Origin: Alphaproteobacteria bacterium UBA830
Lineage (GTDB): Bacteria > Pseudomonadota > Alphaproteobacteria > MPNO01 > UBA830
DNA: 64,000 nucleotides
Assembly (NCBI GenBank): GCA_905181725.1
Contig: CAJIYX010000016.1
Span: 1,738 to 65,737, forward strand
Direction: 5' to 3'
Positions 17,394-42,354 of this stretch are shown in pieces. The notes beneath the pieces were generated by a model. That model had not been told where the DNA came from, ran no database searches, and worked only from the letters and a program-made list of their open reading frames with translations. Position numbers and translations under genes: made by a program. Position 1 is the stretch's first letter; every line of letters starts with the position of its first letter.

Positions 17394-17395
17394 GC

Positions 17396-18640: not shown

Positions 18641-18648
18641 AGGTGCGT

Positions 18649-20136
18649 TCAGAACCGGGGGAGATCGGGGAAACGGGTCTGACCGCTGTGGATATGCACC
18701 CGGCCAAGTTCGGCGCAGCGATGCAGGATCGGGAAAACCTTGCCGGGATTGAGCTGCTGCGTCGGATCGAACGCACATTTCACCCGCTGCTGCTGGTTGA
18801 GGTCGATTTCGGTAAACATCTCGCCCATCAGATCGCGTTTTTCGACGCCGACACCGTGTTCGCCGGTCAGCACGCCACCAACCTCGACACAGAGCTTCAA
18901 TATATCCGACCCGAAATCCTCCGCCTTTTCCAGTTCGCCCGGTTTGTTGGCATCGTACAGGATCAGCGGGTGCAGGTTGCCGTCTCCGGCATGAAACACA
19001 TTGGCGACACGCAGATCATAGTGTTCTGAAAGTTCGGTCATCCGCGTCAGCACTTCGGACAGCCGGTGGCGCGGGATTGTGCCATCCATGCAGTAGTAAT
19101 CCGGCGAGATGCGACCGACCGCCGGGAAGGCCGCTTTCCGACCTGCCCAGAAATTGTCGCGTTCGGCTTCGGACGTACTGATACGCACCGAATCTGCCTG
19201 GTTTTCACGGGCGATCGCCTCTACCCGGCCGATCAGTTCGTCGACCTCCACCTCGGGGCCATCCAGCTCAACAATCAGCAGAGCCTCGGCATCGAGCGGA
19301 TAGCCGGCATTCACGAACGCCTCCGCCGCATGGATCGCCGGCTTGTCCATCATTTCCATGCCGCCGGGAATAATGCCGGCGCCGATAATCTGGGCAACGC
19401 AGTCCCCCGCGGATTCGCTGGACGGGAAACCGATCAGCAATGCCCTTGCAGTTGCCGGTTTGCGCAGCATCCGGACAGTGACTTCGGTGATAACCCCGAG
19501 CAGCCCTTCAGATCCGGTCACGATACCGAGAAGATCATAGCCACCTGAATCCAGATGCTTGCCGCCCAGTCGGACGGTTTCTCCGTCCATCAGCACCATC
19601 TCGATACCGAGCAGGTTATTGGCCGTCAGGCCGTATTTCAGACAGTGAACACCGCCCGAATTTTCCGCCACATTGCCGCCAATCGAACACGCAATCTGGC
19701 TCGACGGGTCCGGCGCGTAATAGAAACCATCCGCCTCCACCGCATGGGTGATCGCAAGGTTGGTGACACCGGGCTGCGCGGTCACGCAGCGATTGTCGTA
19801 ATCTATGTCGAGAATGCGGTTGAACTTGCCGAGACCTAGCGTAATTCCGTCTTCGAGCGGCAGCGCCCCGCCCGACAGTGACGTACCTGCGCCGCGCGGC
19901 ACGATCTTGACCCCGCTGCCATGGCAGTATTTGAGAATGTCGGAGATCTGCTGCGTCGTTTCCGGTAGCACAACGATCATCGGGAGCTGGCGATAGGCGG
20001 TCAGCCCGTCGCATTCATAGGCGCGGAGCTCTTCTTCCTCGGCAATAACGCCTTCGCCCGGAACGATCCTGCGTAATGCCGCGATGATCTCTCCGCGCCG
20101 GGAAAGGACATCGCGATCTGGATCAGGCATACGCAT
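18649..20136 (-). CDS. glcD: Glycolate oxidase subunit GlcD
   Basis: YECDGLTAY, RGAGTSLSGG, PDPSSQIACSIGGNVAENSGG, FHAGDGNLHP, GEHGVGVEK, LNPGKVFP. Confidence 0.95.
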   Translation of the reverse strand: MRMPDPDRDVLSRRGEIIAALRRIVPGEGVIAEEEELRAYECDGLTAYRQLPMIVVLPETTQQISDILKYCHGSGVKIVPRGAGTSLSGGALPLEDGITLGLGKFNRILDIDYDNRCVTAQPGVTNLAITHAVEADGFYYAPDPSSQIACSIGGNVAENSGGVHCLKYGLTANNLLGIEMVLMDGETVRLGGKHLDSGGYDLLGIVTGSEGLLGVITEVTVRMLRKPATARALLIGFPSSESAGDCVAQIIGAGIIPGGMEMMDKPAIHAAEAFVNAGYPLDAEALLIVELDGPEVEVDELIGRVEAIARENQADSVRISTSEAERDNFWAGRKAAFPAVGRISPDYYCMDGTIPRHRLSEVLTRMTELSEHYDLRVANVFHAGDGNLHPLILYDANKPGELEKAEDFGSDILKLCVEVGGVLTGEHGVGVEKRDLMGEMFTEIDLNQQQRVKCAFDPTQQLNPGKVFPILHRCAELGRVHIHSGQTRFPDLPRF

Positions 20137-25880: not shown

Positions 25881-26744
25881 TTATTTCTCGTTTTTGACCG
25901 GGTTCGACAGAATGCCGATCTTTTCAATCTCGATTTCGCAGGTATCGCCGTCCTTCAGGAAAATGGCGGGCTTGCGGACGAAACCGACACCGGCAGGCGT
26001 ACCGGTAAGGATAATATCACCCGGCAGCAGCGTGAACACCTTGGCCAATTCGTGAACAAGGGTCTTGGTATCGAAAATCATTTCGCGGGTGTTCGAATCC
26101 TGCAGCACCTTGCCGTTCACGCGGCACTGCATTTTGAGCCCCTTGGCACCGGCCGGCAGTTCGTCGGCGGTGACGAAATCCGACCCGATTGAGCCCGTGG
26201 CATCGAAGTTCTTGCCCATGGCCCACTGCGACGATTTCATCTGGTAATCGCGGATGGAGCCTTCATTGGCGACCGAATAGCCGGCAACGTAATCGAGCGC
26301 TTCGCTCTTTTTGATGTTGCGGGCCTTCTTGCCGATGACGGCAACCAGCTCGGCCTCGTAATCGAAATGCTTCGACAGTTTCGGCCGGATAATCGGCTGC
26401 CCCTGCGCCACGAAGGACGTGGTGAAACGGGTGAAGACAACCGGATAGGTCGGGATCTTCAAACCGGCTTCTGCGGCATGATCCTTATAGTTCAGCCCGA
26501 TACAGATGATCTTATTGGGCTCCTGGATAGGCGTCAGGTAATTGACGCGGCCCTTTACCATCGCGCGCGGCGGTGCCTTGGCTGCCGCACGGCCAGCCTT
26601 CTGCATCGCACCCTTGCCCTTCGCGATAAGTTCCTTGAGGTCGGTCGGCAGTGTCTTGTCGACCTTGGACAGATCTACCAGACCGGCATCGGTACGGACG
26701 CCGAGCTTGGCCTTGCCGTCTTTTTTGAAAGCGACGAAACGCAT
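25881..26744 (-). CDS. Fumarylacetoacetate hydrolase family protein
   Basis: KIICIGLNYKDHAAE, DYEAEL, NEGSIRDYQ, GKNFD, GDIILTGTPAGVG. Confidence 0.94.
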   Translation of the reverse strand: MRFVAFKKDGKAKLGVRTDAGLVDLSKVDKTLPTDLKELIAKGKGAMQKAGRAAAKAPPRAMVKGRVNYLTPIQEPNKIICIGLNYKDHAAEAGLKIPTYPVVFTRFTTSFVAQGQPIIRPKLSKHFDYEAELVAVIGKKARNIKKSEALDYVAGYSVANEGSIRDYQMKSSQWAMGKNFDATGSIGSDFVTADELPAGAKGLKMQCRVNGKVLQDSNTREMIFDTKTLVHELAKVFTLLPGDIILTGTPAGVGFVRKPAIFLKDGDTCEIEIEKIGILSNPVKNEK

Positions 26745-26862: not shown

Positions 26863-27555
26863 CTACTGCAGCGCGTAGCCTTTTTCATAGTGCAGGAAAA
26901 TGCCGTCAAAATAGAACCAGCGCATGCGAGCACTTTCACGCGCAAAATGAATCGCGGCTTCTTTCATCTCCGGCGTGGTGCAGTGACGGTCAAGAACTTC
27001 GAATCCCCGGTTGCTGTGTTCGATATCGACTTCGGAATGCAGCCAGAAATGTTTGATGGCTTCTTCGTCGTATTTGTAATTTTCACGCAACGACGGCAAC
27101 ACCCGGCTGTATAGCCTGGGGGACTGGGATTCCGTCCCGATCCGGATCGCCGCGATACCGCAATACCAGGGCGCATCGCGGGCCACCTGTTTCAGCCACG
27201 CGGCCCAGGACCGCGTTGTCGGCAGACCTTCGCCCTGGCGCACCGCACCGAGATCCGCTCCGTTCGCTTCGGCGAACTGAAGGACGATTTCCATGTGCGG
27301 CTCGTCGGGGTCTTCTTCCTCATGGAAATTTGCAATCTCCAGCTCGATCACATCTGCTGGCGCCTTGGAACATATCTGGAAGGTCGCCTCGGTCAGCATG
27401 TTCGATATCCAGTGATAGTGCTCGACCGCCCAGCCCATGCAGGCGTTCTTGCCGAGATCGCCTGCCGCCAGCATGTCCCACATGGGATGATCGGCGCAGT
27501 GCCGCTCGTCGACGGCCGCTTCGAGCGCGAGCCGGAAATCTGACTTACTCATCAC
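26863..27555 (-). CDS. Heme-oxygenase-like diiron (CADD/PqqC/TenA-fold) redox enzyme
   Basis: HPMW...AGDL start; metal-ligand pattern E-x6-H (EEDPDEPH), E (GTESQ), H-x3-D-x2-H (HSEVDIEH). Confidence 0.85.
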   Translation of the reverse strand: MMSKSDFRLALEAAVDERHCADHPMWDMLAAGDLGKNACMGWAVEHYHWISNMLTEATFQICSKAPADVIELEIANFHEEEDPDEPHMEIVLQFAEANGADLGAVRQGEGLPTTRSWAAWLKQVARDAPWYCGIAAIRIGTESQSPRLYSRVLPSLRENYKYDEEAIKHFWLHSEVDIEHSNRGFEVLDRHCTTPEMKEAAIHFARESARMRWFYFDGIFLHYEKGYALQ

Positions 27556-27562
27556 GTTCTCC

Positions 27563-28621
27563 TTACGTTTTCAAAAATTTCGGAATGACCTCGCGGCCGA
27601 ACAATTCCATCGATGCACGTGCCATCTCGACCGGCATCATTTTTGTATTCACCTGCAGCGACGCAACATCAAAACCACCAATCTGCGTATGGAAATCCGA
27701 GATCATGTCACAGCACTCTTCGGGGCTGCCAATGAAGGCTGCACTTTTCTCACGCTGGGTGTGCACGTCCTCTTTCGACAGAACCTCGATCATCTTTTCA
27801 TAGCCGGGATAATCTTTTGAGCTTGCCCCGCTGCCCCAATCCGACGCGGCATCGGTCAGGGTCTCGAAATATGCCTTCACATCCGGGCCAGCCTCATCGA
27901 TTGCCCGTTCGGTCGTCGGCGCGCAATACATCATGAAGGCGAGCGCGACCTTGCCCCTGCCCGGATGGCCCGCTTTCGCCCATTCTTCGTGATAGATGCC
28001 GAGCAATTCGTGCAGCTTGGCGCCACCGATGGGGTTCGCCATGCAGTTGAACCCGTTGCGCCCCGCGAACTCGAAGCTCTCGACGCTCTGCAGCGCGGCA
28101 ACCCAGATCGGCGGATGCGGCTGCTGCGTCGGGCGCGGCAGCGAGGTTACATCTTTGAAGCTGTGGAACTTCCCTTCCATTGAGATGTTTTCGCTCGATA
28201 GCAATGCGCAGATCTGTGCGACACCTTCATCATACCGATCCCGGCTTTCGTCCAGGCTGACGCCAAACCGCCTGAACTCATGGGGCAGAAAGGCGCGCGC
28301 CATACCGATATCGGCGCGGCCGCCGGAAATCGCATCCAGCATCGCGATCTCGCCCGCGAGTTTGAGCGGATTGTTGAACGCGGGCAGTACGGCACCAGTC
28401 ACCAGGCGCGCGTGCTTCGTGCGCTGCGACGCGGCCGACAGAAACACAATCGGGTTCGGGCTGTAACCGCCGTAAGCGTGAAAGTAATGCTCGACCGTGC
28501 GGACATGGGTGTAGCCCAGCGAGTCGCACAGATCGACAAGGCTCAGCGCTTCGTTCCAGTAATCCCATCCCGATTTTTCGGCTTCGCCCACATTGGGGAA
28601 AAAACTGATTCCGAATTCCAT
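27563..28621 (-). CDS. LLM flavin-dependent monooxygenase, paralog 2
   Basis: MEFGISFFP, VEHYFHAYGGYSPNP, NNPLKLAGEIAMLDAISGGR, LPRPTQQPHPPIWVAA; ends 7 bp before the diiron gene. Confidence 0.92.
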   Translation of the reverse strand: MEFGISFFPNVGEAEKSGWDYWNEALSLVDLCDSLGYTHVRTVEHYFHAYGGYSPNPIVFLSAASQRTKHARLVTGAVLPAFNNPLKLAGEIAMLDAISGGRADIGMARAFLPHEFRRFGVSLDESRDRYDEGVAQICALLSSENISMEGKFHSFKDVTSLPRPTQQPHPPIWVAALQSVESFEFAGRNGFNCMANPIGGAKLHELLGIYHEEWAKAGHPGRGKVALAFMMYCAPTTERAIDEAGPDVKAYFETLTDAASDWGSGASSKDYPGYEKMIEVLSKEDVHTQREKSAAFIGSPEECCDMISDFHTQIGGFDVASLQVNTKMMPVEMARASMELFGREVIPKFLKT

Positions 28622-28678
28622 CGCGCCCGCCCCGTTTATTGATTTTGAAGGTTGAATATTAGGGATCAAATGGGCGTT

Positions 28679-28800: not shown

Positions 28801-29298
28801 ATGGCCCATGACGGCGACCAGCCGGGAGACATTCCCTATACCGATTTATGGGCACGGCCTGGATTCCTGATCCGCCGGCTGCACCAGCTTCATGTCGCTG
28901 TGTTTCTGGAAGAATGCGGTGATTTCGACGTCACGCCGGTTCAGTATGCCGTGCTCAGCGTACTCTATCGCGGCCAGGCGCTCGACCAGGTATCTGTCGC
29001 CGCCGAAGTCGGGATCGACCGCAATAATGCCGCCGATGTGCTGCGCCGGCTCGAACGCCGCGGCTTCGTCGAACGCATCCCGAGCGAGACCGACCGGCGC
29101 GCCATGCTGAATGCCATTAGCGAGGCGGGGTGCCGGTTCGTGGAAGACGCTCACGGCGCCATGGAACGCGCTCAGGACCGCTTCACCGGCAGCCTCAGCA
29201 AGCGCGACCGAGAGCGGCTGACCAACCTGCTGCAGAGGGTCATGCTCGACAATAACGATTCCGGCCGGGCGCGGCTGAAGACCCGGGACGAGGAGTAA
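28801..29298 (+). CDS. MarR family regulator (PcaV/MobR-like), paralog 1
   Basis: LWARPGFLIRRLHQ...TPVQYAVL...LDQVSVAAEVGIDR...LERRG...DRR; divergent from the LLM2-HDO-FAH genes. Confidence 0.92.
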   Translation: MAHDGDQPGDIPYTDLWARPGFLIRRLHQLHVAVFLEECGDFDVTPVQYAVLSVLYRGQALDQVSVAAEVGIDRNNAADVLRRLERRGFVERIPSETDRRAMLNAISEAGCRFVEDAHGAMERAQDRFTGSLSKRDRERLTNLLQRVMLDNNDSGRARLKTRDEE

Positions 29299-29350: not shown

Positions 29351-30688
29351 CTACTCAGCAGCGATTTTCGGCGCGTCAGCTTCGATCGTTTCCACGTTGT
29401 TGCGCTTGGTCGCGAACTTGGCGTCGGCGGGTTCGTAGATATCGTCCTTGATCTTGAAATGCCCGTCGGCGTAATCGGCATCGCTCGTCGGCACCATCTT
29501 GATGGAATCGAACGGGCAGATATCCATGCACAGCTCGCAGCCGATGCACTTGTCGTTATGCACGTTGATCTTGCCGGCTGGATCCTGCGACAGCGCTTCG
29601 TAGAAGCACATCTGAACGCAGACATTGCAGGTCGGGTTCTGACAGGTCTCGGCATTCACCTCGGCGGTCTCGCGGCTTTTGGCGAACTGGTCGGAATAGT
29701 CGGTCGCTGCCGCATCCGAGGCGATGCCGCGCATCGATGCGATGTCCTTGTACTCATGCTCGTCCATGAAACGCTCAAGCCCGCGGATGATGTTGGGCAG
29801 CCATTTCATGCCCTTGACCATCAGCACCGAGCCGACTTCGACGATGTCGGCACCGGTCATGATGAACTCGACGACATCGCGGTGATCGAACACGCCGTTG
29901 GAGCCGGCGATCGGAATGCCGACCTCTTTGTAGATGTTATGGACATAGCGCAGGCTGAGCGGCTTGGTCCACGTGCCACCGATACCGGCAGTGCCACCGA
30001 GACGCGGCTCCGCGGTGTCGATATCGACCGCAAAACCGGTATAGCGGTTAGTCGCGGTGACCGCCGCAGCGCCGGCTTCTTTGACCGCGCGCGCAACGTC
30101 AACCGGCCGCGACTGATCGGGTGTCAGTTTGATGACGACGGGAATATCGACCGCTTCGCAGACAGCCCGGGTGACGTCCGCGGCAACTTCCGGATTCTGG
30201 CCGATCATCGAGCCGCCATGCACGCCGGGCATCAGCGCCGGATGCGGGCAGCCGAAATTGAGTTCGACCATCGGCAGGCCGCAATCCTCGATCGTGCGGC
30301 AGATATCGATCCAGCCCTGGACGTCCTTCGCACCGGCGCTGCCGATCAGATGGGCATCGCGTTCGCGCGCATAGGCGCCGACTTCCTTCAGGTAGGGGAT
30401 CCAGTCCTTGTAATAGGTGCTGGAATAGCCGGACCGGCTGTAGAATTTAAAGTCGCGCGGCACCTTGCCCTTAATGATGTCGCCGCGATCGTTCATGATC
30501 GCGTATTTCGAATTCATGGTAAGGACGGCCATGTCGTCGATATCGGTCAGCGTCTTGATGATCGCGCCCGATGCGCCGTAATCGAATGCCTGTTTCATCA
30601 GGTCCGGGCTGTTCGTCGTTTCCAGCGATGCGATGACCACCGGGTTTTTGAACGGAACGCCGCAGAAGTCCAATTTCATATCGGCCAT
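29351..30688 (-). CDS. PreA-like dihydropyrimidine/dihydroorotate dehydrogenase (FMN) with a C-terminal 2x[4Fe-4S] domain
   Basis: GVPFKNPVVIAS, ELNFGCPH, VVIKLTPD, ATN, GIGG...KPLSL, GSNG, VEVGS, CxxxCxxCxxxC and CIGCELCMDICP. Confidence 0.88.
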   Translation of the reverse strand: MADMKLDFCGVPFKNPVVIASLETTNSPDLMKQAFDYGASGAIIKTLTDIDDMAVLTMNSKYAIMNDRGDIIKGKVPRDFKFYSRSGYSSTYYKDWIPYLKEVGAYARERDAHLIGSAGAKDVQGWIDICRTIEDCGLPMVELNFGCPHPALMPGVHGGSMIGQNPEVAADVTRAVCEAVDIPVVIKLTPDQSRPVDVARAVKEAGAAAVTATNRYTGFAVDIDTAEPRLGGTAGIGGTWTKPLSLRYVHNIYKEVGIPIAGSNGVFDHRDVVEFIMTGADIVEVGSVLMVKGMKWLPNIIRGLERFMDEHEYKDIASMRGIASDAAATDYSDQFAKSRETAEVNAETCQNPTCNVCVQMCFYEALSQDPAGKINVHNDKCIGCELCMDICPFDSIKMVPTSDADYADGHFKIKDDIYEPADAKFATKRNNVETIEADAPKIAAE

Positions 30689-30797
30689 GTCTTACTTCTC
30701 CTCGTTATCTGGTTATCGGCACCGCAATGACGGCGAACTCGCTTCCGATAGACCTGTATTCTGCCGTCAAAATGCGGCAATTTCCAGTTAAAATGTG

Positions 30798-30807
30798 CAG
30801 TATACTA
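30798..30807. promoter_or_regulatory. Putative MarR operator upstream of the preA-like gene
   Basis: CAGTATACTA in the AT-rich spacer between hydantoinase B and preA. Confidence 0.5.
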
Positions 30808-30833
30808 CGTATTAAATCCTCTCTTCCCGCCCT

Positions 30834-32591
30834 CTATTCGGCGGCCATCATGGTGCCGCGCAGCGTTGCCGTCGCATCCGCATCGACGCTTTTGCCGCCC
30901 TTCGCCGCAACGACTCCATACACATCATGCATGGTGGCTTCGGAGATAATCTCGTCGCGCCAGTCGCGCAGGACATGCTCAGGGGCACGCTCCAGCGCCG
31001 GGCCGTATCCGCCGCCGCCGGGCGACTGGGTCACGAAACGCACGTTGTCGGTCCGCCGCAGCCCGTATTTGGGCGCATCCTCGGTCTCGCCGTTGCCATG
31101 ACGCAGATGCATGTTCCCGCAGGCGCCATCGCCGCCGCCGTTGATGCCGTAACCGGTTTCGTAGTTGAGCCCTTCGCCGCGGAACGAATGGACCGCGGGC
31201 GTGAGGATATCGACCTCGTAATCGCAGCCGCTGCCGCCCCGGTATTTTCCCGCACCCGCCGCATCGATGCGGAATTCCTGGCGGTGGAACATCACCGGGT
31301 AAAGCTGCTCATAGACTTCGACATTGGGCATCGTCAGCCCGCCGAGCGTGCAGACATGGCCGATCTGGTTGAAGCCGTCGCGCCCGTCGACCGCGCCGGA
31401 ACCGGCGGCAGCCGCACCATGATAGAACACGTACGGGTGGCCGCTTTCTTCCTTGCCGACGGAAATGCCGAAGACGTTCTTGGCCCAGCCCGCACAGCCG
31501 CGGTCGGGGTCGGCCTGCGCCAGCGCCTTCCACACGGCATGAATGATCTCATGCGCGAAGAACACGGTACACATCGTGGTCGCCGCACCTTCATGGGCAT
31601 TGATGATCGTGCCTTCCGGCGCGATCACATCGACGCAGCGGAAAGCGCCTTCGTTATGCGGCAGATGCGGATCGAGGAACGACGCAAGTGCTGTAAAGAT
31701 CGCCGAATACGTATTGCCGAGGGACGAGTTCTTGAACCCGAGAATCTGCTCATCGGTGCCGGTGAAATCGACCGTCATCTGATCGCCGGCGATGGTCAGC
31801 TTAACCCGGACTGTCACATCGCGGATCTCGAAACAGTCATTGTCGGAGCGGTCTTCCGCCTCGTAAACCCCGTCAGGCAGTTTCGCGATCTCGGCACGGA
31901 CCGAGCGGTCAGCATGGTTGAGCACGCCGGTGAAATAGCCCATCGCCTCATTGATGCCGAGCTCTTCGACCAGGGCCGCAACGCGTTCCATCCCGATCCG
32001 GGTGGAGCCGAGCATGGCGCGCAGATCGCCATCCAGCAGATGCGGCGTGCGGGTGTTGAGCATCAGCAGTTTCCACAGGTCGTCGCGGGTCTTGCCGCCC
32101 TCGACCAGTTTGAGAACCGGCAGGCGCACGCCTTCGGACCAGGCATCGGTCGCAACCGGGTTGTAGGCCCCGGCGGCACCGCCACCGATATCGGATTGAT
32201 GGGCGCGGTTGCAGGTCAGACCGACCATCTGGCCGTCGACAAAAACCGGGCGCGCAATGACCCAGTCGGGCAGATGGTTGCCGCCGGCTTCCCACGGGTC
32301 GTTCAACAGATAGACATCGCCCTCGGCCAGCTCATCGCCGAAATCGCGCAGGATGGCGCGGACGCCGAACCCGCCGCTGCCGGTATGGATCGGGATGCCG
32401 TCGGCCTGGCTGACGACCTCGCCGGTCGGGCCTGCGATGAAGCAGGAAAAGTCATGCGCCTGGCTGAAGATCGGACTACGCGCCGTGCGCACCATCACCC
32501 AGCCCATCTGGTGGGAGATATGATCGAGGCGGTTCTGCGTCAACGCGAGGATGACGGGATCGAGCGTGCCTGTGTCTGCTTGCTGAGCCAT
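30834..32591 (-). CDS. Hydantoinase B/5-oxoprolinase family subunit
   Basis: RTARSPIFSQAHDFSC, NDPWEAGGNHLPD, AHQSDIGGG, EGVRLP, PHNEG, VEVYEQLYP, GAGKYRGG, PGGGGYG. Confidence 0.93.
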   Translation of the reverse strand: MAQQADTGTLDPVILALTQNRLDHISHQMGWVMVRTARSPIFSQAHDFSCFIAGPTGEVVSQADGIPIHTGSGGFGVRAILRDFGDELAEGDVYLLNDPWEAGGNHLPDWVIARPVFVDGQMVGLTCNRAHQSDIGGGAAGAYNPVATDAWSEGVRLPVLKLVEGGKTRDDLWKLLMLNTRTPHLLDGDLRAMLGSTRIGMERVAALVEELGINEAMGYFTGVLNHADRSVRAEIAKLPDGVYEAEDRSDNDCFEIRDVTVRVKLTIAGDQMTVDFTGTDEQILGFKNSSLGNTYSAIFTALASFLDPHLPHNEGAFRCVDVIAPEGTIINAHEGAATTMCTVFFAHEIIHAVWKALAQADPDRGCAGWAKNVFGISVGKEESGHPYVFYHGAAAAGSGAVDGRDGFNQIGHVCTLGGLTMPNVEVYEQLYPVMFHRQEFRIDAAGAGKYRGGSGCDYEVDILTPAVHSFRGEGLNYETGYGINGGGDGACGNMHLRHGNGETEDAPKYGLRRTDNVRFVTQSPGGGGYGPALERAPEHVLRDWRDEIISEATMHDVYGVVAAKGGKSVDADATATLRGTMMAAE

Positions 32592-32595
32592 CTGA

Positions 32596-34671
32596 TCAGT
32601 CCTTCGTCTCGAAGTTGATAGTGTAATTGTTCAACGCGTCGATCGACACCAGGTCGCCCGGCCCGACCAGGATGGTGGTCGTCGCCTCCTCGATAATGGC
32701 GGGACCGGCGAAGGTCTGACCGTGATGCAGATCGGCACCGCGATAAATCGGCGTGTCGAGGAATTCGCCGACCGATTCCGCATAGACCGGGCGGGAATCG
32801 ATGGGCTCGACCGGTTTGTCGACCGGATCGTAGGTCGGGTACTGCAACGGCGGCAGCTTGCCGATACCGACAACCCGCAGCTTGGCGACGTTGATCCGGC
32901 TTTCGGGATTGGTGTGGCCGAACTGGCGGTCGTATTCGCGCTCGAACGCGGCACGGATTTCAGCCGGCGTCGCATCCGGGGCGAGCGAGACGCGCACGTC
33001 CCATTGCTGACCTTCGTAATGCAGGTCGAGCTCGTAACCGAATGTCGTGTCGTCCTTTGTGAAACCTTCTTCGCCGAGCGCATCCAGCGCCTGCACCTCA
33101 AGCTGGGCGTAGCCGTCCGCAATAGCGGACGCGACGTCATCGCCAAGCTCGCGCATCACGACATGCACGAAATCGCGCCGCACATCGGCGTGCTGCATGC
33201 CGATGGCGCAGAATGCACCGGCCTGACGCGGAATATAGACTGCGCGCGCGCCGAGCTTGCGCCCGACACTCGTGCCATGCATCGGCCCGGCGCCACCGCA
33301 GGCGATCAGCATGAACCGGCCGGGGTTGTAGCCGCGCTGGATACTGATGCGCTCGACCGCGTGCAGCAGATTCTGTTCAACAATCCGGATCAGCCCGGCT
33401 GCCGCTTCGGTCCGCGAAATGCCGAGCGGGTTGGCAATCTCGGTATCGATGGCTTTCTCGGCCGCTGCCAGATCAAGCGAGACCGAGCCGCCTGCATACG
33501 GCCCGGGCCGCATCCGCCCCAGCACCAGATGCGCGTCCGTCACGGTCGGGCGTGTCCCGCCATGACCGTAGGCCGCGGGACCCGGGCGCGCGCCGGCACC
33601 TTCGGGCCCAGCATACATCAGACCGGCCGCGTCGATGCCCGCAATCGTGCCGCCGCCCGCGCCGACGGTGTGAATATCGACCGACGGCGTGACCAGATCA
33701 TAATCGTTGACTGACAGCGCATCGGTGATCGCGACGCGCCCTTCATGCATCAGCATCACGTCGCAACTGGTGCCGCCGATTTCCATACTGACCAGATTGT
33801 CTTCGCCAATCCCGGCGGCGAGGTGCTGCATTGCGCCGACACCGGCGGACGGACCCGACAGCAGCAGGTTTACCGGCTGGCGGATCAACTGGTCGAGAGA
33901 GGCCGCCCCGCCATTGCTCTGCAGCATCAGCAGCTTGGTCTTCAGCCCCATGTCGATTAGCTTCTGCTGCAGCGCCGTGAGGTACGATGCTACACGCGGC
34001 ATCACATAGGCGTTCACCGCCGTGGTCGATGTGCGTTCATATTCGCCCATAACCGGCACGATGTCGGACGACACCGAAATCCATTCGCAGATATTTTCTT
34101 CGCGCAGAACCTCGGCGACCGCGTCTTCATGGGCCGTATTGACGAAGCTGTTGAGCAGGCTGACGGCGATGGATTCGACGTCGTTCTCGGCAAAGATTTT
34201 ACAGGCGGCGCGAACGTCATCGAGATTGAGCGCTTCGACTTCAGACCCGTCGGCCGCAATACGCCCGGCAACGGGCAGACGCAGATAGCGCGGCACCAGC
34301 ACCGGCGGATAGGGCGTGCGGTGATCCCAGGGATCCTTGCGCAGGCCGCGGCGCGCTTCGAGGCTGTCGCGAAAGCCCTTTGTGGTCAGCAGACCGACCC
34401 GCGCGCCCTTGCCTTCAAGCAGGGTGTTGGTCGCGACCGTGGAGCCATGCAGGAAAAACTGACAATCGCCGAGAAATTTTTCCATGGTCTGGTCGAGCGC
34501 GGCACAGGCGGTGTTCAGCGCCGAGATCACGCCTTCGCCGGGATCAGCGGGCACCGACGGCACCTTAAAAACATCGGTACGGCCGTTGCTATCGGCGATG
34601 ACAAGATCGGTAAACGTGCCGCCGACATCGACGCCGACGCGCCAGGGCGGTGACTGAATGGTTGTGGTCAT
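32596..34671 (-). CDS. Hydantoinase A/5-oxoprolinase family subunit (ATP-binding)
   Basis: GVDVGGTFTD, HGSTVATNTLLE, EYERTSTT, SGPSAG, IGGTSCDV, GAGGG, AGARPGPAAYG, TVTDA, GGAGPMH, GPAIIEE. Confidence 0.94.
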   Translation of the reverse strand: MTTTIQSPPWRVGVDVGGTFTDLVIADSNGRTDVFKVPSVPADPGEGVISALNTACAALDQTMEKFLGDCQFFLHGSTVATNTLLEGKGARVGLLTTKGFRDSLEARRGLRKDPWDHRTPYPPVLVPRYLRLPVAGRIAADGSEVEALNLDDVRAACKIFAENDVESIAVSLLNSFVNTAHEDAVAEVLREENICEWISVSSDIVPVMGEYERTSTTAVNAYVMPRVASYLTALQQKLIDMGLKTKLLMLQSNGGAASLDQLIRQPVNLLLSGPSAGVGAMQHLAAGIGEDNLVSMEIGGTSCDVMLMHEGRVAITDALSVNDYDLVTPSVDIHTVGAGGGTIAGIDAAGLMYAGPEGAGARPGPAAYGHGGTRPTVTDAHLVLGRMRPGPYAGGSVSLDLAAAEKAIDTEIANPLGISRTEAAAGLIRIVEQNLLHAVERISIQRGYNPGRFMLIACGGAGPMHGTSVGRKLGARAVYIPRQAGAFCAIGMQHADVRRDFVHVVMRELGDDVASAIADGYAQLEVQALDALGEEGFTKDDTTFGYELDLHYEGQQWDVRVSLAPDATPAEIRAAFEREYDRQFGHTNPESRINVAKLRVVGIGKLPPLQYPTYDPVDKPVEPIDSRPVYAESVGEFLDTPIYRGADLHHGQTFAGPAIIEEATTTILVGPGDLVSIDALNNYTINFETKD

Positions 34672-34703: not shown

Positions 34704-34719
34704 AGGGAGTATACTCCCT
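34704..34719. promoter_or_regulatory. 16-bp perfect palindrome upstream of hydantoinase A (putative MarR operator)
   Basis: AGGGAGTATACTCCCT, 33-48 bp upstream of the ATG at 34671. Confidence 0.65.
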
Positions 34720-34735
34720 TTATTCCGTACGCCCG

Positions 34736-35920
34736 TCAATCGTCAAATGGCAACCCGACATAATTCTCGGCAAGGGCCCGCGCGCCGGCCTCGGTGCTGG
34801 TCACGAAATCAAGCTCGGCGAGCTGGGTGCGGCGCTCGAACGGGCTGGATTCCGGAAAACGGTGCATCAGGGTTGTCAGCCACCACGAGAACCGCTGCGC
34901 CTTCCAGACCCGGCGCAGGCAGGTTTCGGAATAGCGCTCCAGCCGACTGTCATCGCCCTTCTTGTAATGATCCATCAGCGCACGCCACAGGTAGCGCACG
35001 TCGCCGACGGCAAGGTTCATCCCTTTCGCACCGGTTGGCGGCACGATATGGGCGGCGTCGCCGACCAGGAACATGTTGCCGAACCGCATGGGCTCGGCGA
35101 CGAAGCTGCGCATCGGCGTGATGCCTTTTTCCAGCAACGGTGCGGGCACCAGGTTTTTCGCGCCTTCATCATCCAGCCGGTAGGCCAGCTCGTCCCAGAT
35201 ACGGTTATCCGACCATTCGTTGATGTCTTCATCCGGTGCGCACTGGAGATAGAACCTGCTCAATGTCATTGACCGCATGCTGTACAACGCGAATCCGTGA
35301 TCGGTATTGGCATAGACCAGCTCGTCCGAGACCGGCGGCGTTTCGACAAGGATGCCGAGCCACGCAAACGGATAGACGCGTTCGAACAGGTTGATACGAT
35401 CATCGGGAATGCTGCTGCGGGACACGCCGTGAAAACCGTCGCACCCGGCGAGAAAATCGCATTGAATTTCATGCGCCTCGCCGTCTCTGCTGTAGCGGAT
35501 CGACGGCTGGTCGGTATCGAAATCGTTTACCGTGACGTCCTCGGCCTCGTACACAATCTGCGCGCCGGCGGCATGAAGCGCGTTGTTCAGGTCCTTTGTC
35601 ACCTCGGTCTGGCCATAGACCATGACGGTCTTGCCGCCGGTCAGTTTCAGAAAATCAATTGCATGGCGCTCACCGTTGAAACACAGCTCGACCCCGCCAT
35701 GGAGCAGCCCTTCTTCATGCATCCGCTCACCGACCTGGGCCTCATCCAGCAGGTCCATGGTGCCCTGTTCGAGCACACCGGCGCGGATACGCCCTTCGAC
35801 GTATGCCCGGCTCTGGCGCTCGACGACGATGCTATCAATCCCCTGTAGTGCCAGCAGGCGTGACAGCAGCAGCCCGGACGGCCCGGCGCCGACGATACCG
35901 ATCTGTGTTTTGTGGATCAT
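34736..35920 (-). CDS. pobA: 4-hydroxybenzoate 3-monooxygenase
   Basis: TQIGIVGAGPSGLLL, RIRAGVLEQG, VYGQTEV, CDGFHG, YPFAWLG, GDAAHIVPPTGAKGMNLA, AENYVGLP. Confidence 0.95.
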   Translation of the reverse strand: MIHKTQIGIVGAGPSGLLLSRLLALQGIDSIVVERQSRAYVEGRIRAGVLEQGTMDLLDEAQVGERMHEEGLLHGGVELCFNGERHAIDFLKLTGGKTVMVYGQTEVTKDLNNALHAAGAQIVYEAEDVTVNDFDTDQPSIRYSRDGEAHEIQCDFLAGCDGFHGVSRSSIPDDRINLFERVYPFAWLGILVETPPVSDELVYANTDHGFALYSMRSMTLSRFYLQCAPDEDINEWSDNRIWDELAYRLDDEGAKNLVPAPLLEKGITPMRSFVAEPMRFGNMFLVGDAAHIVPPTGAKGMNLAVGDVRYLWRALMDHYKKGDDSRLERYSETCLRRVWKAQRFSWWLTTLMHRFPESSPFERRTQLAELDFVTSTEAGARALAENYVGLPFDD

Positions 35921-38273: not shown

Positions 38274-38313
38274 ATACTATTAAAACCCAATGAAGCCGTG
38301 GCGGCTCTCGTAT

Positions 38314-39384
38314 CTACGCCGCCGCGACGCCGTCGGTTTTCTGCTCATCCCCGTACAGGCGGCGCAGAACACGGCGCATGGCCAGCAGGCCTTCATCGGC
38401 CGGGATCGTGCCACGCGGGTTCGCATCGCGGCTGGGGGATTGCGGGTCCATATCGATGGCGCGCTGCTGGGCCTCGTAAATATCGAGATCCTCTTTGAGC
38501 ACGCCGTCCATCTGTTCGACGAACAGGCCGCGCATGTGATCCGGCACCATGTCCCTGTGCCCGGCGACGGTCCAGAACTGGTGCGTCGTGGTCTCGGTCT
38601 CGGGCGTCATCGCGTGATAGACGACGAAGCCCCACTTACCCTGATCGTTATTGCGCGTGTCGGTATCGGCACCGACCCCGGCATCGACCGAGCCGTTATT
38701 GATATTGATATAGGCAGGCGGCAGGAACTGGCTCATCTGCCAGCGGTCGATATTGGTCTCGTACCCGGCATATTCACGAAACGCGAGCGCCGGTTCGATA
38801 TCTTCCATCCAGCGCGTCACCCGCACGTTGTCGTCTTCCAGATCGACCGACAGGTTGGCGGCTTCCGCGACCGCGCGATTGCCGGTGGTCGAGCCATGCA
38901 CATAGGTCAGGTGCGACAGGTCCAGCAGGTTGTCGAGCACGAGGCGGTATCCGGCCTTCACGTATGTCTGGCCCTGCGCGCGGATCCAGTCTTCATCCAG
39001 GTTGTGCTTCGGGTATGCGGGGATGGTCGCTTCATCGGCAAGCGCGGGGTCGCCCGGCCAGTAGAATACCCAGCCATGGCGTTCGGCGACCGGATAGGTG
39101 CGCACTGTCGCCCAGTCCGGCGGCGTAGGCGAGCCCGGCAGATGGGTGCAACTGCCGGAACAGTCATAGACCATGCCGTGATAGCCGCATTCGATCTCGT
39201 CGCCGATCAACCGGCCTTCGGAGAGCGGCAGGTTGCGATGCGGACAGCGGTTTTCAAGGGCGACCGGCGTGCCGTCTTCCTTGCGGTAGAGCACGACATA
39301 TTCGTTCAGAAGAACGCGCCCCAGGAGTTCGCGCCCGACGTCTTTCGACCAGGCGGCTACGTACCAGGCATTTTTCAGGAACAT
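38314..39384 (-). CDS. VanA-type Rieske oxygenase (O-demethylase-like, alpha-only type)
   Basis: MFLKNAWYVAAW, CPHRNLPLSEG...CGYHG, DNLLDLSHLTYVH, NIDRWQ, HAMTPET, EDLDIYEAQQ, DEG...RR. Confidence 0.92.
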   Translation of the reverse strand: MFLKNAWYVAAWSKDVGRELLGRVLLNEYVVLYRKEDGTPVALENRCPHRNLPLSEGRLIGDEIECGYHGMVYDCSGSCTHLPGSPTPPDWATVRTYPVAERHGWVFYWPGDPALADEATIPAYPKHNLDEDWIRAQGQTYVKAGYRLVLDNLLDLSHLTYVHGSTTGNRAVAEAANLSVDLEDDNVRVTRWMEDIEPALAFREYAGYETNIDRWQMSQFLPPAYININNGSVDAGVGADTDTRNNDQGKWGFVVYHAMTPETETTTHQFWTVAGHRDMVPDHMRGLFVEQMDGVLKEDLDIYEAQQRAIDMDPQSPSRDANPRGTIPADEGLLAMRRVLRRLYGDEQKTDGVAAA

Positions 39385-39483
39385 CTTTTTTCTCCCACGA
39401 CGGTATATGTCTGTCCACGTCTGACTGCTTCCGACCACGTCTGTCTAGATTTTACCACGGCCGCCCGGCGCCGCATATTTCAT

Positions 39484-39539
39484 CAGTATACCCCGTTAAT
39501 TCCTGTTCACAACCGGATTCAACAAATCTCAGTATACTG
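39484..39539. promoter_or_regulatory. Two putative MarR operator sites in the Rieske/MarR2 divergent promoter
   Basis: CAGTATACCC (39484-39493) and perfect CAGTATACTG (39530-39539). Confidence 0.6.
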
Positions 39540-39567
39540 CGGACTGCCCAGCCGATATGGTTTCGCC

Positions 39568-40089
39568 ATGACAGAAACCAAACCTAAAACCGGCGGCTCT
39601 TCAACGAGCACCGGATCTGGCGGCTCATTAACGAGCCTGTGGGAACGCCCCGGCTATCTTGTCCGTCGGCTGCATCAGATCCATGTCGCTATCTTTCTGG
39701 ACGAATGCAGCGATTACGCCACCACGCCGGTGCAGTATGCGGTGATGACCGCCCTACTCAACAATCCCGGCGCGGATCAGGTCACGCTTGCCAATGATGC
39801 CGGAATCGATCGCACAAATATCTCCGACGTGCTCGCGCGGCTGGCGGAGCGCGGCCTGGTCAAACGCGAAGCGGGGAAACAGGACCGCCGGATGCGGGTC
39901 GCCAATCTGACCCAAGAGGGCGACCGGATCGCCCGCGATATGGAACACGCATCGCTCAGCGCGCAAGCCCGGCTGATGGCGCCGCTCTCGGCGGAAAAAC
40001 GCGATCAGCTCATGTCATTGATGGGCGAACTGGTCGATGCCAATAACGAATTCAGCCGTGCACCCGCCCGCAAACGTCCCGCCGATTAA
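39568..40089 (+). CDS. MarR family regulator (PcaV/MobR-like), paralog 2
   Basis: LWERPGYLVRRLHQIHVAIF...TPVQYAVM...DQVTLANDAGIDRTN...DRRMR; clearly homologous to the MarR at 28801. Confidence 0.92.
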   Translation: MTETKPKTGGSSTSTGSGGSLTSLWERPGYLVRRLHQIHVAIFLDECSDYATTPVQYAVMTALLNNPGADQVTLANDAGIDRTNISDVLARLAERGLVKREAGKQDRRMRVANLTQEGDRIARDMEHASLSAQARLMAPLSAEKRDQLMSLMGELVDANNEFSRAPARKRPAD

Positions 40090-40168: not shown

Positions 40169-41173
40169 TTACATGTTGCGCTTGGCCGCGTCCTTGAGCA
40201 GGCCGTAAATCTTGCGCACGCCTTCGTTCTTGTGCTTACCGAGGAATTCGTCGCCCAGCGGACGCACGGTGTCCATGAACGCTTTCTGATCGGCGGAGGA
40301 CAGGCGGATCACTTCGGCGCCGTTATCCTTCCATAGTTTTTCGGCTTTCTTGCCGAAAGCAGCAGCGGTGTCGTTGTTCCACTGACTCATGGCGGCAAGC
40401 TCGGACGTGACAGCGTCACGCTGTTTCGCCGACAGTTTTTTGAGCCAGATGTCGCTCACCATCACGACGCTGGGAATCATCCCGCTTTCGACAACGGTGA
40501 TCGACTTGGTGACCGTGAAGAACTTCGATCCGCCCATGACGATGATCGAGCTGCGCACCGCGTCGACCGTGCCGCGCTGCAACGCCGGCAGCACTTCGGT
40601 ATAGGGGATCGGCACACCGGCGGCGCCGAACTTGCGGACCAGGGTGCTTTCCATCTTGGTGGCGAGCACACGAATCTTGCGGCCCTTGAAGTCCGCCAAG
40701 GTGCGGATCGGTTTCTTGCTGGCGAATGAAGTCGGCCCGTAGACATACATCGATGCCATGGTGATGCCGCGCGCCGAAGCGAGCTTGGAATACGGTTTGA
40801 AGAACGCCGGATCATTCAGCGATTTAAACGCGTGGTTGATATCGGTGAACAGACCCGGGGCATCCGGCACCTGGAAGGCGGGATTAATCCCGACGAGGAA
40901 GCCCGGCGGCGTGATCAACGCTTCGAGCGTGCCGAACTGGAGACCTTCGATCATCCGCGGAATTTTCCCGATCTGACCGGCCGGGAAGATGCTGACCTTG
41001 ATGCCTAGTTCCTTGTTGCCGCCAATCCGTTTCTGGATTTCCTGCGCGATCGCGTGCTGCGGATCGTTGATAGTACCGTAGCCGATCTTCATTTCGCTTT
41101 GTGCGGTCGCAGCGGTCGCAAAACCAGCGACGGCGAGCGCCGCAATCGCGCCAAGATATTTGTGTGTCGTCAT
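40169..41173 (-). CDS. TRAP transporter substrate-binding protein (DctP family), no dctQM adjacent
   Basis: Signal peptide; FPAGQIG, VPDAPGLF, DFKGRKIRV, VPIPYTEVLPALQRGTVD. Confidence 0.9.
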   Translation of the reverse strand: MTTHKYLGAIAALAVAGFATAATAQSEMKIGYGTINDPQHAIAQEIQKRIGGNKELGIKVSIFPAGQIGKIPRMIEGLQFGTLEALITPPGFLVGINPAFQVPDAPGLFTDINHAFKSLNDPAFFKPYSKLASARGITMASMYVYGPTSFASKKPIRTLADFKGRKIRVLATKMESTLVRKFGAAGVPIPYTEVLPALQRGTVDAVRSSIIVMGGSKFFTVTKSITVVESGMIPSVVMVSDIWLKKLSAKQRDAVTSELAAMSQWNNDTAAAFGKKAEKLWKDNGAEVIRLSSADQKAFMDTVRPLGDEFLGKHKNEGVRKIYGLLKDAAKRNM

Positions 41174-41353
41174 CGTGACTCTCCCATTCAAAATAAAATC
41201 CCAGTCCAGACTCTAACGGGCGGCGCTCAACATGCCAATTATCGTTAGAAATCTAACCATCAGTATGGTGAGCGGTCTCGCAGCGAGTCAATAGAGCGGC
41301 ACCGCCGGATCGTGTTAAATGGACGGAAGGAAACAGGATAGAAGGACGCAAAA

Positions 41354-41758
41354 ATGACCAGTAAATCCGTCGGCACCAGCCCCGCAACAGTGGCCCCGCC
41401 TATGAAGCCCCATTATTCAAACAGTATCCGGACCAAAAGCGGCCCGCTGCTTTTCGTGGCCGGACAGGTCGCTCTGAACGCGGAGAGCAAGCTGGTCGGC
41501 GAAGGCGATATCCGGGCCCAGACAACGCAGGTGCTTGAAAATATCCGGGCCATCGTCGAAGCGAATGGCGCGACCATGGCCGATCTTGCGCAGGTGACGG
41601 TCTATGTCACGAACATAGCGGCGTTCAGCCTGGTTTCCGACATCCGCGAACGCTATTTCCCGGCCGACGGCCCGGCATCCGCAATTGTCGAGGTATCGGC
41701 GCTCGCCTGGCCGGAATTCCTGATCGAGATCTCCGCCGTCGCCGCGCTGCCCGGATAG
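41354..41758 (+). CDS. RidA/YjgF family imine deaminase
   Basis: HYSNSI, LFVAGQVAL, GDIRAQTTQVLENI, VYVTN, IRERYF, PASAIVEVSALAWPEFLIEISAVA (catalytic Arg present). Confidence 0.92.
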   Translation: MTSKSVGTSPATVAPPMKPHYSNSIRTKSGPLLFVAGQVALNAESKLVGEGDIRAQTTQVLENIRAIVEANGATMADLAQVTVYVTNIAAFSLVSDIRERYFPADGPASAIVEVSALAWPEFLIEISAVAALPG

Positions 41759-42354
41759 GGCATCCCGTCCACACCGATCAGCCCGCGCGACACCAGGTCA
41801 TCGACAGTGCGGCGGAACTGTTCGCCCGCCGCCGGGCGCTTCCAGGCCTCCAGCCAGTTCTGTTCGACAAAAGCGTGAATGGCCGGCTGACCGAGCACCG
41901 CCTCCCACAGGATGCCGAGCAACGACGCCATCAGCTCTTCATGCTCTTTGACCGTGTCGCTCGCATAGCGCGCGGCGTCTGCATCGGCCACGCAGCCAGT
42001 TTCAGGCCCGGCACCCAGACCAAAATCCGGCAGGTGGCGCCGGTCGGGCGGCGCGATCTGCCAGTGGGCAAGCTCATGGACCAGGACGGAGGCCTCGCTC
42101 TGCGTGCGGATCGCGTGGCCGTCCCAGCTGAACGCCGTCGACGGCTTTTCGTGAATGACCGGAACGCCGAATGACATGACAAGATCGAGCGCCGCCTGCC
42201 GATGCGCCGGTGTGTCATAGGGCGCATCGAATGCTGCACGGCTGCCCGCAATCAGATCGAACGCCGCCCGCGCCGGGGTGGCGAGGGCGAAGTAGGATTC
42301 AAACCCGGCAAGCGCTCTGGTCAAGGTATCGCGGTTTATCGGTGTCAATCTCAT
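41653..42354 (-). CDS. Hypothetical HExxH protein, distantly EpmC/YfcM-like
   Basis: VHELAHWQIAPPDRRHLPDFGLG...EHEE; the 3' end overlaps the RidA gene by about 106 bp. Confidence 0.6.
   Translation of the reverse strand: MRLTPINRDTLTRALAGFESYFALATPARAAFDLIAGSRAAFDAPYDTPAHRQAALDLVMSFGVPVIHEKPSTAFSWDGHAIRTQSEASVLVHELAHWQIAPPDRRHLPDFGLGAGPETGCVADADAARYASDTVKEHEELMASLLGILWEAVLGQPAIHAFVEQNWLEAWKRPAAGEQFRRTVDDLVSRGLIGVDGMPYPGSAATAEISIRNSGQASADTSTIADAGPSAGK

Follow-up and report, generated by a model that had tools for sequence, protein, structure and literature searches.

The 64,000-nucleotide stretch of the genome of Alphaproteobacteria bacterium UBA830 analysed here (contig CAJIYX010000016.1; the window) carries hyuA and hyuB together with the gene of a 445-amino-acid PreA-like protein at 29351-30688, for which we use the shorthand DHFS (DHODH-fold, Fe-S; DHODH, dihydroorotate dehydrogenase). 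Based on sequence comparison, DHFS is understood as the member of a distinct and strongly conserved clade of the class-1 DHODH/DPD fold (DPD, dihydropyrimidine dehydrogenase), with a substrate pocket that has been rewritten. We consider it fairly probable that the protein serves as a ferredoxin- or Fe-S-fed ene-reductase of a hydroxylated N-heteroaromatic carboxylate of the pyridone type, with hydrolysis of the resulting lactam by HyuAB as the step that follows. The preliminary description of this locus had placed hyuA, hyuB and the PreA-like gene at coordinates that match open reading frames, and had suggested a variant reductive route acting on something other than uracil.

DHFS matches Pfam DHO_dh (PF01180) with 108.6 bits against a cut-off of 27 and additionally shows the Fer4_21/Fer4 4Fe-4S dicluster domains. 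In the HMMER alignment to pig DPD (1gt8), DHFS residues 2-308 correspond to residues 531-838 of DPD, and the Fe-S part falls on residues 945-1006; no N-terminal Fe-S domain is present in DHFS according to this alignment, the barrel starting at once. The segment ELNFGCPH falls on ELNLSCPH of the pig enzyme, thus retaining Asn668 and the catalytic Cys671 (Cys147 in DHFS), and the eight cysteines of the Fe-S part are arranged as C-x4-C-x2-C-x3-C and C-x2-C-x2-C-x3-C-P. The FMN motifs, catalytic cysteine and two 4Fe-4S sites noticed earlier are therefore borne out by Pfam and by the alignment. The same alignment agrees with the earlier by-eye placement of FYSRSGYS opposite the N-x-E loop and of TNR opposite TNT: FYSRSGYS stands at FLNIELIS of pig DPD, with Asn609 replaced by Ser84 and Glu611 by Ser86, and TATNR stands at TATNT, with Asn736 retained and Thr737 replaced by Arg215. 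Asn609, Glu611 and Thr737 are pyrimidine contacts established by the pig DPD structures.

An AlphaFold2 model of DHFS (pLDDT 77, pTM 0.71) retrieves pig DPD as the top Foldseek match (E 2.6e-28, TMq 0.60-0.62), followed by DHODB. Confidence in the model is low at residues 148-156, which form the active-site loop, and at residues 215-238, and for this reason the model was not used to place side chains; modelling against pig DPD, as envisaged in the preliminary description, thus delivered the fold match but not the active-site detail. Beyond the Fe-S domain, DHFS continues into a C-terminal tail (residues ~400-445; window 29351-29485) with conserved E419, K424, F425, T427, N430 and N431. Alignments with the canonical PreA sequences compared end at about DHFS residue 390-405, and the tail has no PreA counterpart in that set. 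Model confidence is below 50 across the tail. Docking of the electron donor is one role that this peptide could have.

Among NCBIfam models PreA ranks first for DHFS, yet the score of 224.8 bits (NF006183; 223.4 bits in the genome scan) falls well short of the curated equivalog cut-off of 335. Measured against the PreA class, DHFS shares the barrel, the two [4Fe-4S] sites and the ELNxxCPH cysteine, and departs from it in score, in the pyrimidine-contact residues and in the PreT partner. With its score under the cut-off, its position in a separate clade and the invariant replacement of the pyrimidine-contact residues, DHFS is by sequence not an ordinary PreA, and the label 'preA' is best dropped.

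The replacements are shared across a large family. Searching a large protein collection gave hundreds of full-length relatives, the best 120 of them all at least 65% identical to DHFS, and at least 516 proteins reached E<=1e-10 among the 8000 candidates scored, with DHFS being common in metagenomes. Their source names vary between 'dihydroorotate dehydrogenase subfamily 1', 'PreA', 'tRNA-dihydrouridine synthase' and '4Fe-4S dicluster-binding protein'. Ten members of 64-89% identity have F82-Y-S-R-S-G-Y88, T211-A-T-N-R215, Cys147 and all eight Fe-S cysteines invariant. In a motif comparison of 80 species-level loci, the DHFS family (13 loci, 65-77% identity) shows FYSRSGYS, ELNFGCPHP, KLTPDQ, TATNR(Y/H)TG and GSNG, with FYSRSGYS and TATNR invariant or nearly so, whereas canonical PreA (~60 sequences, 27-33% identity) reads NNIELI, ELNFGCPHG, KLTPN, INTxxS (INT(I/V)xS) and SGIGG. 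A small sister group from anaerobes (Dehalococcoidales, Desulfobacter, Desulfohalobiaceae; 43-47% identity) has LYSRSG and NRF. The maximum-likelihood tree sets the DHFS family and this sister group apart from PreA on a long branch (SH-aLRT 98), and the DHFS clade itself is tight (65-100% identity). As judged from these sequences, the motif changes are a family trait and no chance drift. Taxonomically, 27 of the 41 close relatives sampled encode DHFS. Nearly all of these 27 belong to the same family (f1) or its sister family (f210), and within one marine alphaproteobacterial family the protein is near-universal. Of 400 other genomes in the class just 2 have it; it recurs in Burkholderiaceae, with more distant homologues in anaerobes.

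The second element of the proposal is the coupling to ring opening. HyuA and HyuB have the full domain sets of the ATP-dependent hydantoinase/oxoprolinase/lactamase family and are encoded by adjacent genes. The nearest solved structures are caprolactamase (6yra_A, 452 bits) and N-methylhydantoinase (7hk5, 423 bits) for HyuA, and again caprolactamase (6yra_B, 299 bits) ahead of N-methylhydantoinase (233 bits) for HyuB. The caprolactamase equivalogs NF050156/NF050157 (CapA/CapB) give 591.8 bits for HyuA and 366.7 bits for HyuB against a cut-off of 1000. On these matches HyuAB is of the ATP-dependent lactamase/hydantoinase type, without being assignable to caprolactamase proper, and differs from caprolactamase and N-methylhydantoinase in adjoining DHFS, those enzymes not being reported with a DHODH-like partner. 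Acetone/acetophenone carboxylase was considered as well and rejected: the Apc models give 329 and 149 bits against cut-offs of 1500, the carboxylase matches in the PDB are weaker than those to lactamase, and the stretch from hyuA to DHFS has no gene for a third subunit.

The arrangement hyuA-hyuB-DHFS is syntenic in about 14 genomes of family f1 at 74-97% identity. The full family order begins with x233, DctP and MarR2, proceeds from the divergent Rieske oxygenase gene through pobA (present in part of the genomes), hyuA and hyuB to DHFS, and from the oppositely oriented MarR1 through a luciferase-like monooxygenase gene (again optional) to the genes of a diiron protein and a FAH hydrolase. HyuA orthologues of at least 73% identity are found in 26 of 27 DHFS-positive relatives, as compared to none of 14 DHFS-negative ones; in the one DHFS-positive genome without the orthologue, DHFS sits at a contig edge. 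The co-occurrence holds also in f210 genomes in which hyuA and DHFS are 0.7-1.4 Mb apart. Outside f1 three patterns are seen. Loci of Burkholderiaceae run MarR-DHFS-HyuA-HyuB-DctP-molybdenum hydroxylase, with DHFS 65% identical to the window protein and HyuA and HyuB at only 35% and 30%. In other lineages the gene next downstream of DHFS is that of an amidase-signature enzyme, often accompanied by DUF2848 and a small cupin, and in a minority of loci a transporter alone stands beside DHFS. The ring-opening hydrolase thus appears, from these sequence comparisons, to have been recruited independently several times. Our strongest argument derives from this pattern: because a conserved reductase is repeatedly paired with different amide-bond hydrolases, the DHFS product would be a lactam or amide that needs opening. 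The link to a ring-opening enzyme put forward in the preliminary description consequently finds support in the synteny, the co-occurrence, a common palindrome (see below) and the repeated non-orthologous pairing with HyuAB or amidase, and a functional tie of DHFS to lactam/amide hydrolysis is supported at the level of sequence.

Independently of the locus, a DUF2848-small cupin-amidase cluster unlinked from DHFS is found elsewhere in the same genome (C108:31994-34579; L133), its proteins being 45-52% identical to those encoded next to DHFS in other lineages. The organism may accordingly have two alternative ring-opening systems, HyuAB and the C108 cluster. The idea that DUF2848 is a hidden FAH-fold analogue of the FAH gene in the window was dropped, the hhalign probability of 0.5% not being significant.

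Regulatory sequence ties the genes together further. The hyuA stop lies 4 bp before the hyuB start and the three genes run head to tail on the minus strand; between hyuB and DHFS there is a gap of 145 bp with an operator-like palindrome, AGTATACT. Three exact sites of this palindrome are present in the window, as compared to 0.09 expected (Table 1). Among 20 loci of relatives (<=20 kb each), 12 have it 45-130 bp ahead of DHFS and 8 have it 16-45 bp ahead of hyuA; no exact copy in these loci lies anywhere but upstream of DHFS, hyuA, a MarR gene or the Rieske gene, the last in L112, L118 and L129. It is also found before DHFS in L017, L018 and L097 and before hyuA in L009. From these positions we read hyuAB and DHFS as being under common control of MarR-type repressors, acting through putative AGTATACT operators, and probably as two transcripts in this genome. 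Of the single hyuA-hyuB-preA operon described before, the gene order stands, and the single transcription unit is put in doubt by the palindrome-bearing gap before DHFS; hyuAB and DHFS are better viewed as one regulon, possibly with two transcripts. The whole genome holds 9 copies of the palindrome. One (C162:12124) is between an HpaB-like monooxygenase gene and a divergent MarR gene, another (C22:15707) has duplicated half-sites and lies upstream of a 191-amino-acid gene, and these two sites rule out AGTATACT as a marker exclusive to the hyuAB-DHFS regulon. Paralogous MarR regulators of the genome seem to share one box.

Regarding electron supply, the window encodes no PreT, confirming the earlier remark that a PreT/GltD-like NAD(P)H subunit is missing there. 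Genome-wide, no PreT was found either (the assembly, 87% complete in 177 contigs, makes this absence not absolute): the one Fer4_20 gene, on contig C40, scores 673 bits with TIGR01317 and is gltD, gltB being the gene just before it, which leaves no PreT partner for ordinary uracil/thymine reduction in the genome as assembled. Eight near-complete relatives with DHFS have one Fer4_20 gene each, apart from one that has two, by domain count only. A partner of the FNR/VanB type is likewise lacking, with no PF00175 match in the genome. The sole PyrK-like gene of the genome overlaps that of a class-1B PyrD (323.7 bits, above the cut-off) on C52:998-2811, and a class-2 pyrD is located on C176; the genome thus has two dihydroorotate dehydrogenase systems, and DHFS is therefore dispensable for pyrimidine synthesis. 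A 112-amino-acid 4Fe-4S ferredoxin is encoded on C119. Among related loci, L013 has an Fpr-like reductase gene after hyuB; that protein gives no tblastn match in the genome of the window. A tight operon in a Dehalococcoidales metagenome-assembled genome (MAG; L028:70-6857) encodes 2-oxoacid:ferredoxin oxidoreductase alpha/beta/gamma, cupin, DUF2848, the DHFS-like protein, GntR and CN-hydrolase, and hints by its composition at ferredoxin supply and at a 2-oxoacid end product. From these two loci, and by analogy with the ferredoxin-dependent DPD PydAc, DHFS would be fed by a ferredoxin-type donor. The proposed variant using a ferredoxin-type or distant partner in place of PreT hence holds as to the missing PreT, and the ferredoxin donor is put forward on the strength of the two loci and the PydAc precedent.

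The clues to the substrate come primarily from neighbouring genes in other genomes. In 9 of the 17 loci first sampled, and in L095, a three-subunit molybdenum hydroxylase is encoded beside DHFS, its large subunit being closest to quinoline 2-oxidoreductase (Qor; 481 bits). This frequent adjacency supports the earlier proposal of a non-uracil N-heterocycle as substrate. The window's own genome has an unlinked Qor-like cluster (C62:748-6773; L132) of two tandem large subunits with FAD and 2Fe-2S subunits, which are the best in-genome homologues of the Burkholderiaceae DHFS-neighbour hydroxylase (large subunits 55% and 51% identical, the others 45% and 66%); orthologues of the C62-type hydroxylase occur throughout families f1, f210 and f211. 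TRAP (tripartite ATP-independent periplasmic) or MFS (major facilitator superfamily) transporters accompany DHFS and suggest that the substrate is anionic. In a Desulfobacter sp. MAG (L029:10001-18069), a same-strand operon combines a DHFS-like gene (43% identity) with a BCCT transporter, an MttB-family methyltransferase and the FAD and large subunits of a molybdenum hydroxylase, and its gene content suggests a route by which a methylated N-heteroaromatic acid (betaine type) is processed anaerobically. By analogy, the DdmC/VanA-like Rieske oxygenase before hyuA in family f1 would be the aerobic counterpart of methyltransferase-type demethylation. Chemistry of the picolinate type would end in 2-oxoadipate, fitting a 2-oxoacid oxidoreductase, and that of the nicotinate type in 2-formylglutarate, open to a FAH-family enzyme. 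The homarine hom operon was compared and set aside: the published homABCDER comprises a TgnAB-like flavin pair, a peptidase and an aldehyde dehydrogenase, unlike the DHFS cluster.

Combined, these elements lead us to propose the following sequence of steps. The substrate, possibly a methylated N-heteroaromatic carboxylate, would be demethylated by the VanA/DdmC-like Rieske oxygenase, and the unlinked Qor-like molybdenum hydroxylase (C62) would hydroxylate next to the ring nitrogen. Electrons would pass from a soluble ferredoxin, or another Fe-S or flavoprotein, to the [4Fe-4S] pair of DHFS, on to FMN and into a hydride, with Cys147 as the proton source. In this way the C=C in conjugation with the lactam carbonyl would be reduced in a 2-pyridone-type ring (e.g., 6-hydroxypicolinate or 6-hydroxynicotinate). 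Two new arginines, Arg85 and Arg215, plausibly hold the substrate carboxylate. HyuAB, the ATP-dependent lactamase whose genes lie just ahead of DHFS, would then open the de-aromatised lactam, and MarR-type repressors recognising AGTATACT would control the cluster genes.

A number of observations weigh against this proposal. The role of the two arginines rests on alignment, and the AlphaFold2 model has low confidence exactly around residues 148-156 and 215-238. The co-occurrence of HyuA and DHFS reflects few independent events (both genes are present in f1 and f210 and absent from the other families) and so has limited statistical weight. No electron donor is regularly encoded beside DHFS, and in this genome no molybdenum hydroxylase is adjacent to it. 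The pobA, Rieske demethylase and FAH-family genes of the cluster could mean aromatic rather than heterocyclic substrates. The palindrome, lastly, occurs also at the other MarR-linked promoters on C162 and C22, and it was not found upstream of the unlinked hyuA and DHFS in three f210 genomes with one mismatch allowed.

DHFS could alternatively operate in the oxidative direction, like DHODH, dehydrogenating a saturated lactam, imide or dihydro-heterocycle and releasing electrons through [4Fe-4S] to ferredoxin or the respiratory chain, while HyuAB acts earlier or on a different intermediate. We regard this as unlikely. The fold family does comprise physiological dehydrogenases (DHODH 1A/1B), the host lineage looks aerobic from the pobA, Rieske oxygenase and luciferase-like monooxygenase genes nearby, and no reductant-supplying partner is encoded in the vicinity; however, the molybdenum hydroxylase neighbours, making an oxidised pyridone, fit hydroxylation followed by reduction, and in an anaerobe the DHFS-like gene is next to a ferredoxin-reducing 2-oxoacid oxidoreductase. 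Moreover, a cysteine proton donor is the DPD-type arrangement for reduction, and DHFS retains it.

A mere neighbourhood of hyuAB and DHFS without a functional link is, in our assessment, quite improbable. HyuAB would then be an ordinary 5-oxoprolinase or a lactamase of general scope, and DHFS would work on its own as an enoate reductase, for instance on the side-chain C=C of a lignin-type aromatic acid handled by the Rieske demethylase, PobA and the FAH-family enzyme. The matches to VanA, PobA, HpcE-like FAH and HpaR-like MarR proteins have an aromatic-acid flavour, the 145-bp gap gives DHFS a putative operator of its own, and in f210 the genes are often unlinked, with DHFS adjoining only an MFS transporter. 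Yet the orthologues co-occur even when unlinked, the same palindrome precedes both hyuA and DHFS, DHFS is elsewhere independently paired with other amide-bond hydrolases, and pobA is missing from most of the syntenic relatives. Very improbable, finally, is DHFS as a ferredoxin-dependent or partner-swapped DPD for uracil/thymine that feeds the dihydropyrimidinase-family enzyme encoded on C39 (TIGR02033, 556 bits): the architecture is PreA-like and a ferredoxin-dependent DPD is known (PMC7332683), but none of the contacts Asn609, Glu611 and Thr737 is retained, their replacements being invariant, the PreA-model score is below the cut-off, the C39 gene clusters with a FAD_binding_2 flavoprotein, an SDR and a DHDPS-like gene and no β-ureidopropionase, and PydAc keeps the N-terminal Fe-S domain that DHFS is without (PMC7332683).

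Several systems already described resemble DHFS in part and differ from it in part. PreA of the E. coli PreA-PreT enzyme and domains IV-V of DPD (1gt8/1h7w) are the best matches in both sequence and fold, having in common with DHFS an FMN TIM barrel that precedes a 2x[4Fe-4S] domain, the ELNxxCPH asparagine and catalytic cysteine, and the Lys/Asn framework around FMN. Identity is however only ~24-30%, with NxE loop changed to SRSG, TNT to TNR, KLTPN to KLTPDQ and SGIGG to GSNG, and DHFS has the extra tail of ~45 residues, no PreT in the genome, and HyuAB or amidase instead of a pyrimidine gene context. PydAc of Clostridium chromiireducens is a DPD without the FAD/NADPH module that reduces uracil with electrons from ferredoxin or viologen; it retains an N-terminal ferredoxin domain and belongs to a Pyd cluster of strict anaerobes (PMC7332683). 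DHFS resembles it as a DPD family member devoid of FAD/NADPH domains, and is unlike it in lacking the N-terminal Fe-S domain, in its replaced uracil residues, in its occurrence mostly in aerobic Proteobacteria and in its neighbours, which include HyuAB and MarR as opposed to PydB/PydC. The class-1B DHODH PyrD-PyrK uses the same barrel with a cysteine base, and its electrons come in via a separate Fe-S/flavin protein; in DHFS the Fe-S domain is in cis and the orotate/uracil loop is replaced, and the genome has its own PyrK-PyrD1B pair. The nicotinate (THON) route of Eubacterium barkeri employs 6-hydroxynicotinate reductase (Hnr) and enamidase, and Hnr homologues are reported from alphaproteobacterial nicotinate clusters, including the Azorhizobium type (PMC3511419). 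Its logic is the one proposed here, namely pyridone formation by a molybdenum hydroxylase, C=C reduction by a ferredoxin-linked Fe-S flavoenzyme and lactam opening by an amidohydrolase; the difference is that Hnr and enamidase are used there, as against ATP-dependent HyuAB or an amidase-signature enzyme at DHFS loci, Hnr being compared by description only. No NCBIfam model named 6-hydroxynicotinate reductase was among the 25 matches listed of 78.

How bacteria degrade ring acids of the pyridine type (picolinate and nicotinate, their N-methyl betaines, quinoline acids) has been described mainly for routes that use oxygenases. To our knowledge, the enzymes of the hydroxylate-then-reduce steps known from physiological studies mostly have no gene assigned. 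A characterisation of the DHFS family was not found in the literature on hydantoinase/DHODH/4Fe-4S, DUF2848, DHODH-like catabolism and MttB with trigonelline or homarine. If the proposed function is correct, the clade constitutes a sequence-defined candidate ring reductase with SRSG and TNR as diagnostic motifs, and the DPD/DHODH family gains a new substrate class together with a PreT-independent electron supply. The marine alphaproteobacterium would then degrade a nitrogen-ring acid by a route not described so far, and the annotations 'tRNA-dihydrouridine synthase', 'PreA' and 'dihydroorotate dehydrogenase' would need correction for DHFS genes. A more far-reaching version, which we offer as speculation with little likelihood attached, has DHFS and the Qor-like molybdenum hydroxylase form an oxygen-independent hydroxylate-then-reduce module, in which the two electrons taken from an N-heteroaromatic acid at molybdenum return via Fe-S/ferredoxin to the FMN of DHFS and the same ring is de-aromatised without NAD(P)H. 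The module would be Rieske-fed in aerobes and fed by MttB and BCCT in anaerobes, and would provide marine bacteria with a second, so far undescribed route for pyridinium betaines (such as homarine or trigonelline, via picolinate or nicotinate), ATP-driven lactam hydrolysis being the last step.

Table 1. Features of the hyuAB-DHFS locus (window positions)
Feature	Position	Strand	Description
FAH-family hydrolase/decarboxylase	25881-26744	minus	PF01557, 232.6 bits; syntenic with the cluster in family f1
Heme-oxygenase-like diiron (CADD/PqqC-like) protein	26863-27555	minus	PF14518; TIGR04305 76 bits, below cut-off
Luciferase-like monooxygenase	27563-28669	minus	PF00296; genus-level insertion between MarR1 and diiron gene
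MarR1, MarR-family regulator	28801-29298	plus	PF01047; convergent with DHFS; adjoins DHFS in L009 and L112-L121; syntenic across family f1
DHFS	29351-30688	minus	445 aa; DHODH/DPD-fold FMN protein with C-terminal 2x[4Fe-4S] domain and ~45-aa conserved tail
AGTATACT palindrome	30799-30806	strandless	Between hyuB and DHFS, 111 bp ahead of the DHFS ATG; putative MarR operator
hyuB	30834-32591	minus	585 aa; Hydantoinase_B PF02538, 503.6 bits
hyuA	32596-34671	minus	691 aa; ASKHA ATPase subunit; PF05378 Hydant_A_N, PF01968 Hydantoinase_A, PF19278 Hydant_A_C
AGTATACT palindrome	34708-34715	strandless	37 bp upstream of the hyuA ATG
pobA, 4-hydroxybenzoate 3-monooxygenase	34736-35920	minus	TIGR02360, 615.6 bits (cut-off 538.7)
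VanA/DdmC-like Rieske oxygenase	38314-39438	minus	Rieske and VanA_C domains; probable O- or N-demethylase
AGTATACT palindrome	39531-39538	strandless	Divergent MarR2/Rieske promoter region; 1-mismatch copy at 39485, 46 bp away
MarR2, second MarR-family regulator	39568-40089	plus	173 aa; PF01047, 42 bits; divergent from Rieske gene
DctP-type TRAP solute-binding protein	40169-41191	minus	Carboxylate uptake; PF03480, 172 bits; syntenic in family f1

Of the remaining genes at the locus (Table 1), the Rieske oxygenase has dicamba O-demethylase DdmC as its nearest solved structure (156 bits), and the FAH-family protein is nearest to the diketo-acid hydrolase 8gsr and to HpcE. The pobA gene stands between the Rieske gene and hyuA in some relatives only, being missing in L114-L118, L129 and L130, and is probably outside the core of the cluster. 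The luciferase-like monooxygenase is present at the locus only in L111-L113, L118 and L130, and the diiron protein gene keeps its synteny downstream of MarR1 in L009, L113, L116 and L119-L121. A 599-amino-acid plus-strand open reading frame at 38290-40089 is an artefact, the true genes there being the minus-strand Rieske oxygenase and MarR2. At 41653-42354 the window encodes a 233-amino-acid protein with no significant family match, only sub-threshold EpmC; in family f1 its gene keeps its place with DctP and the cluster, the proteins being 56-70% identical.

Elsewhere in the genome, the dihydropyrimidinase/D-hydantoinase-family gene on C39 (C39:1154-6324; L131) shares its cluster with a V4R protein in addition to the genes named above, and the cluster has no DPD; it counts as a further unassigned ring-opening cluster. 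In the window itself, at 16059-20136 and unconnected to DHFS, a GlcF-like Fe-S protein with two CxxCxxCxxxCP motifs is encoded beside a GlcD-like FAD-linked oxidase.

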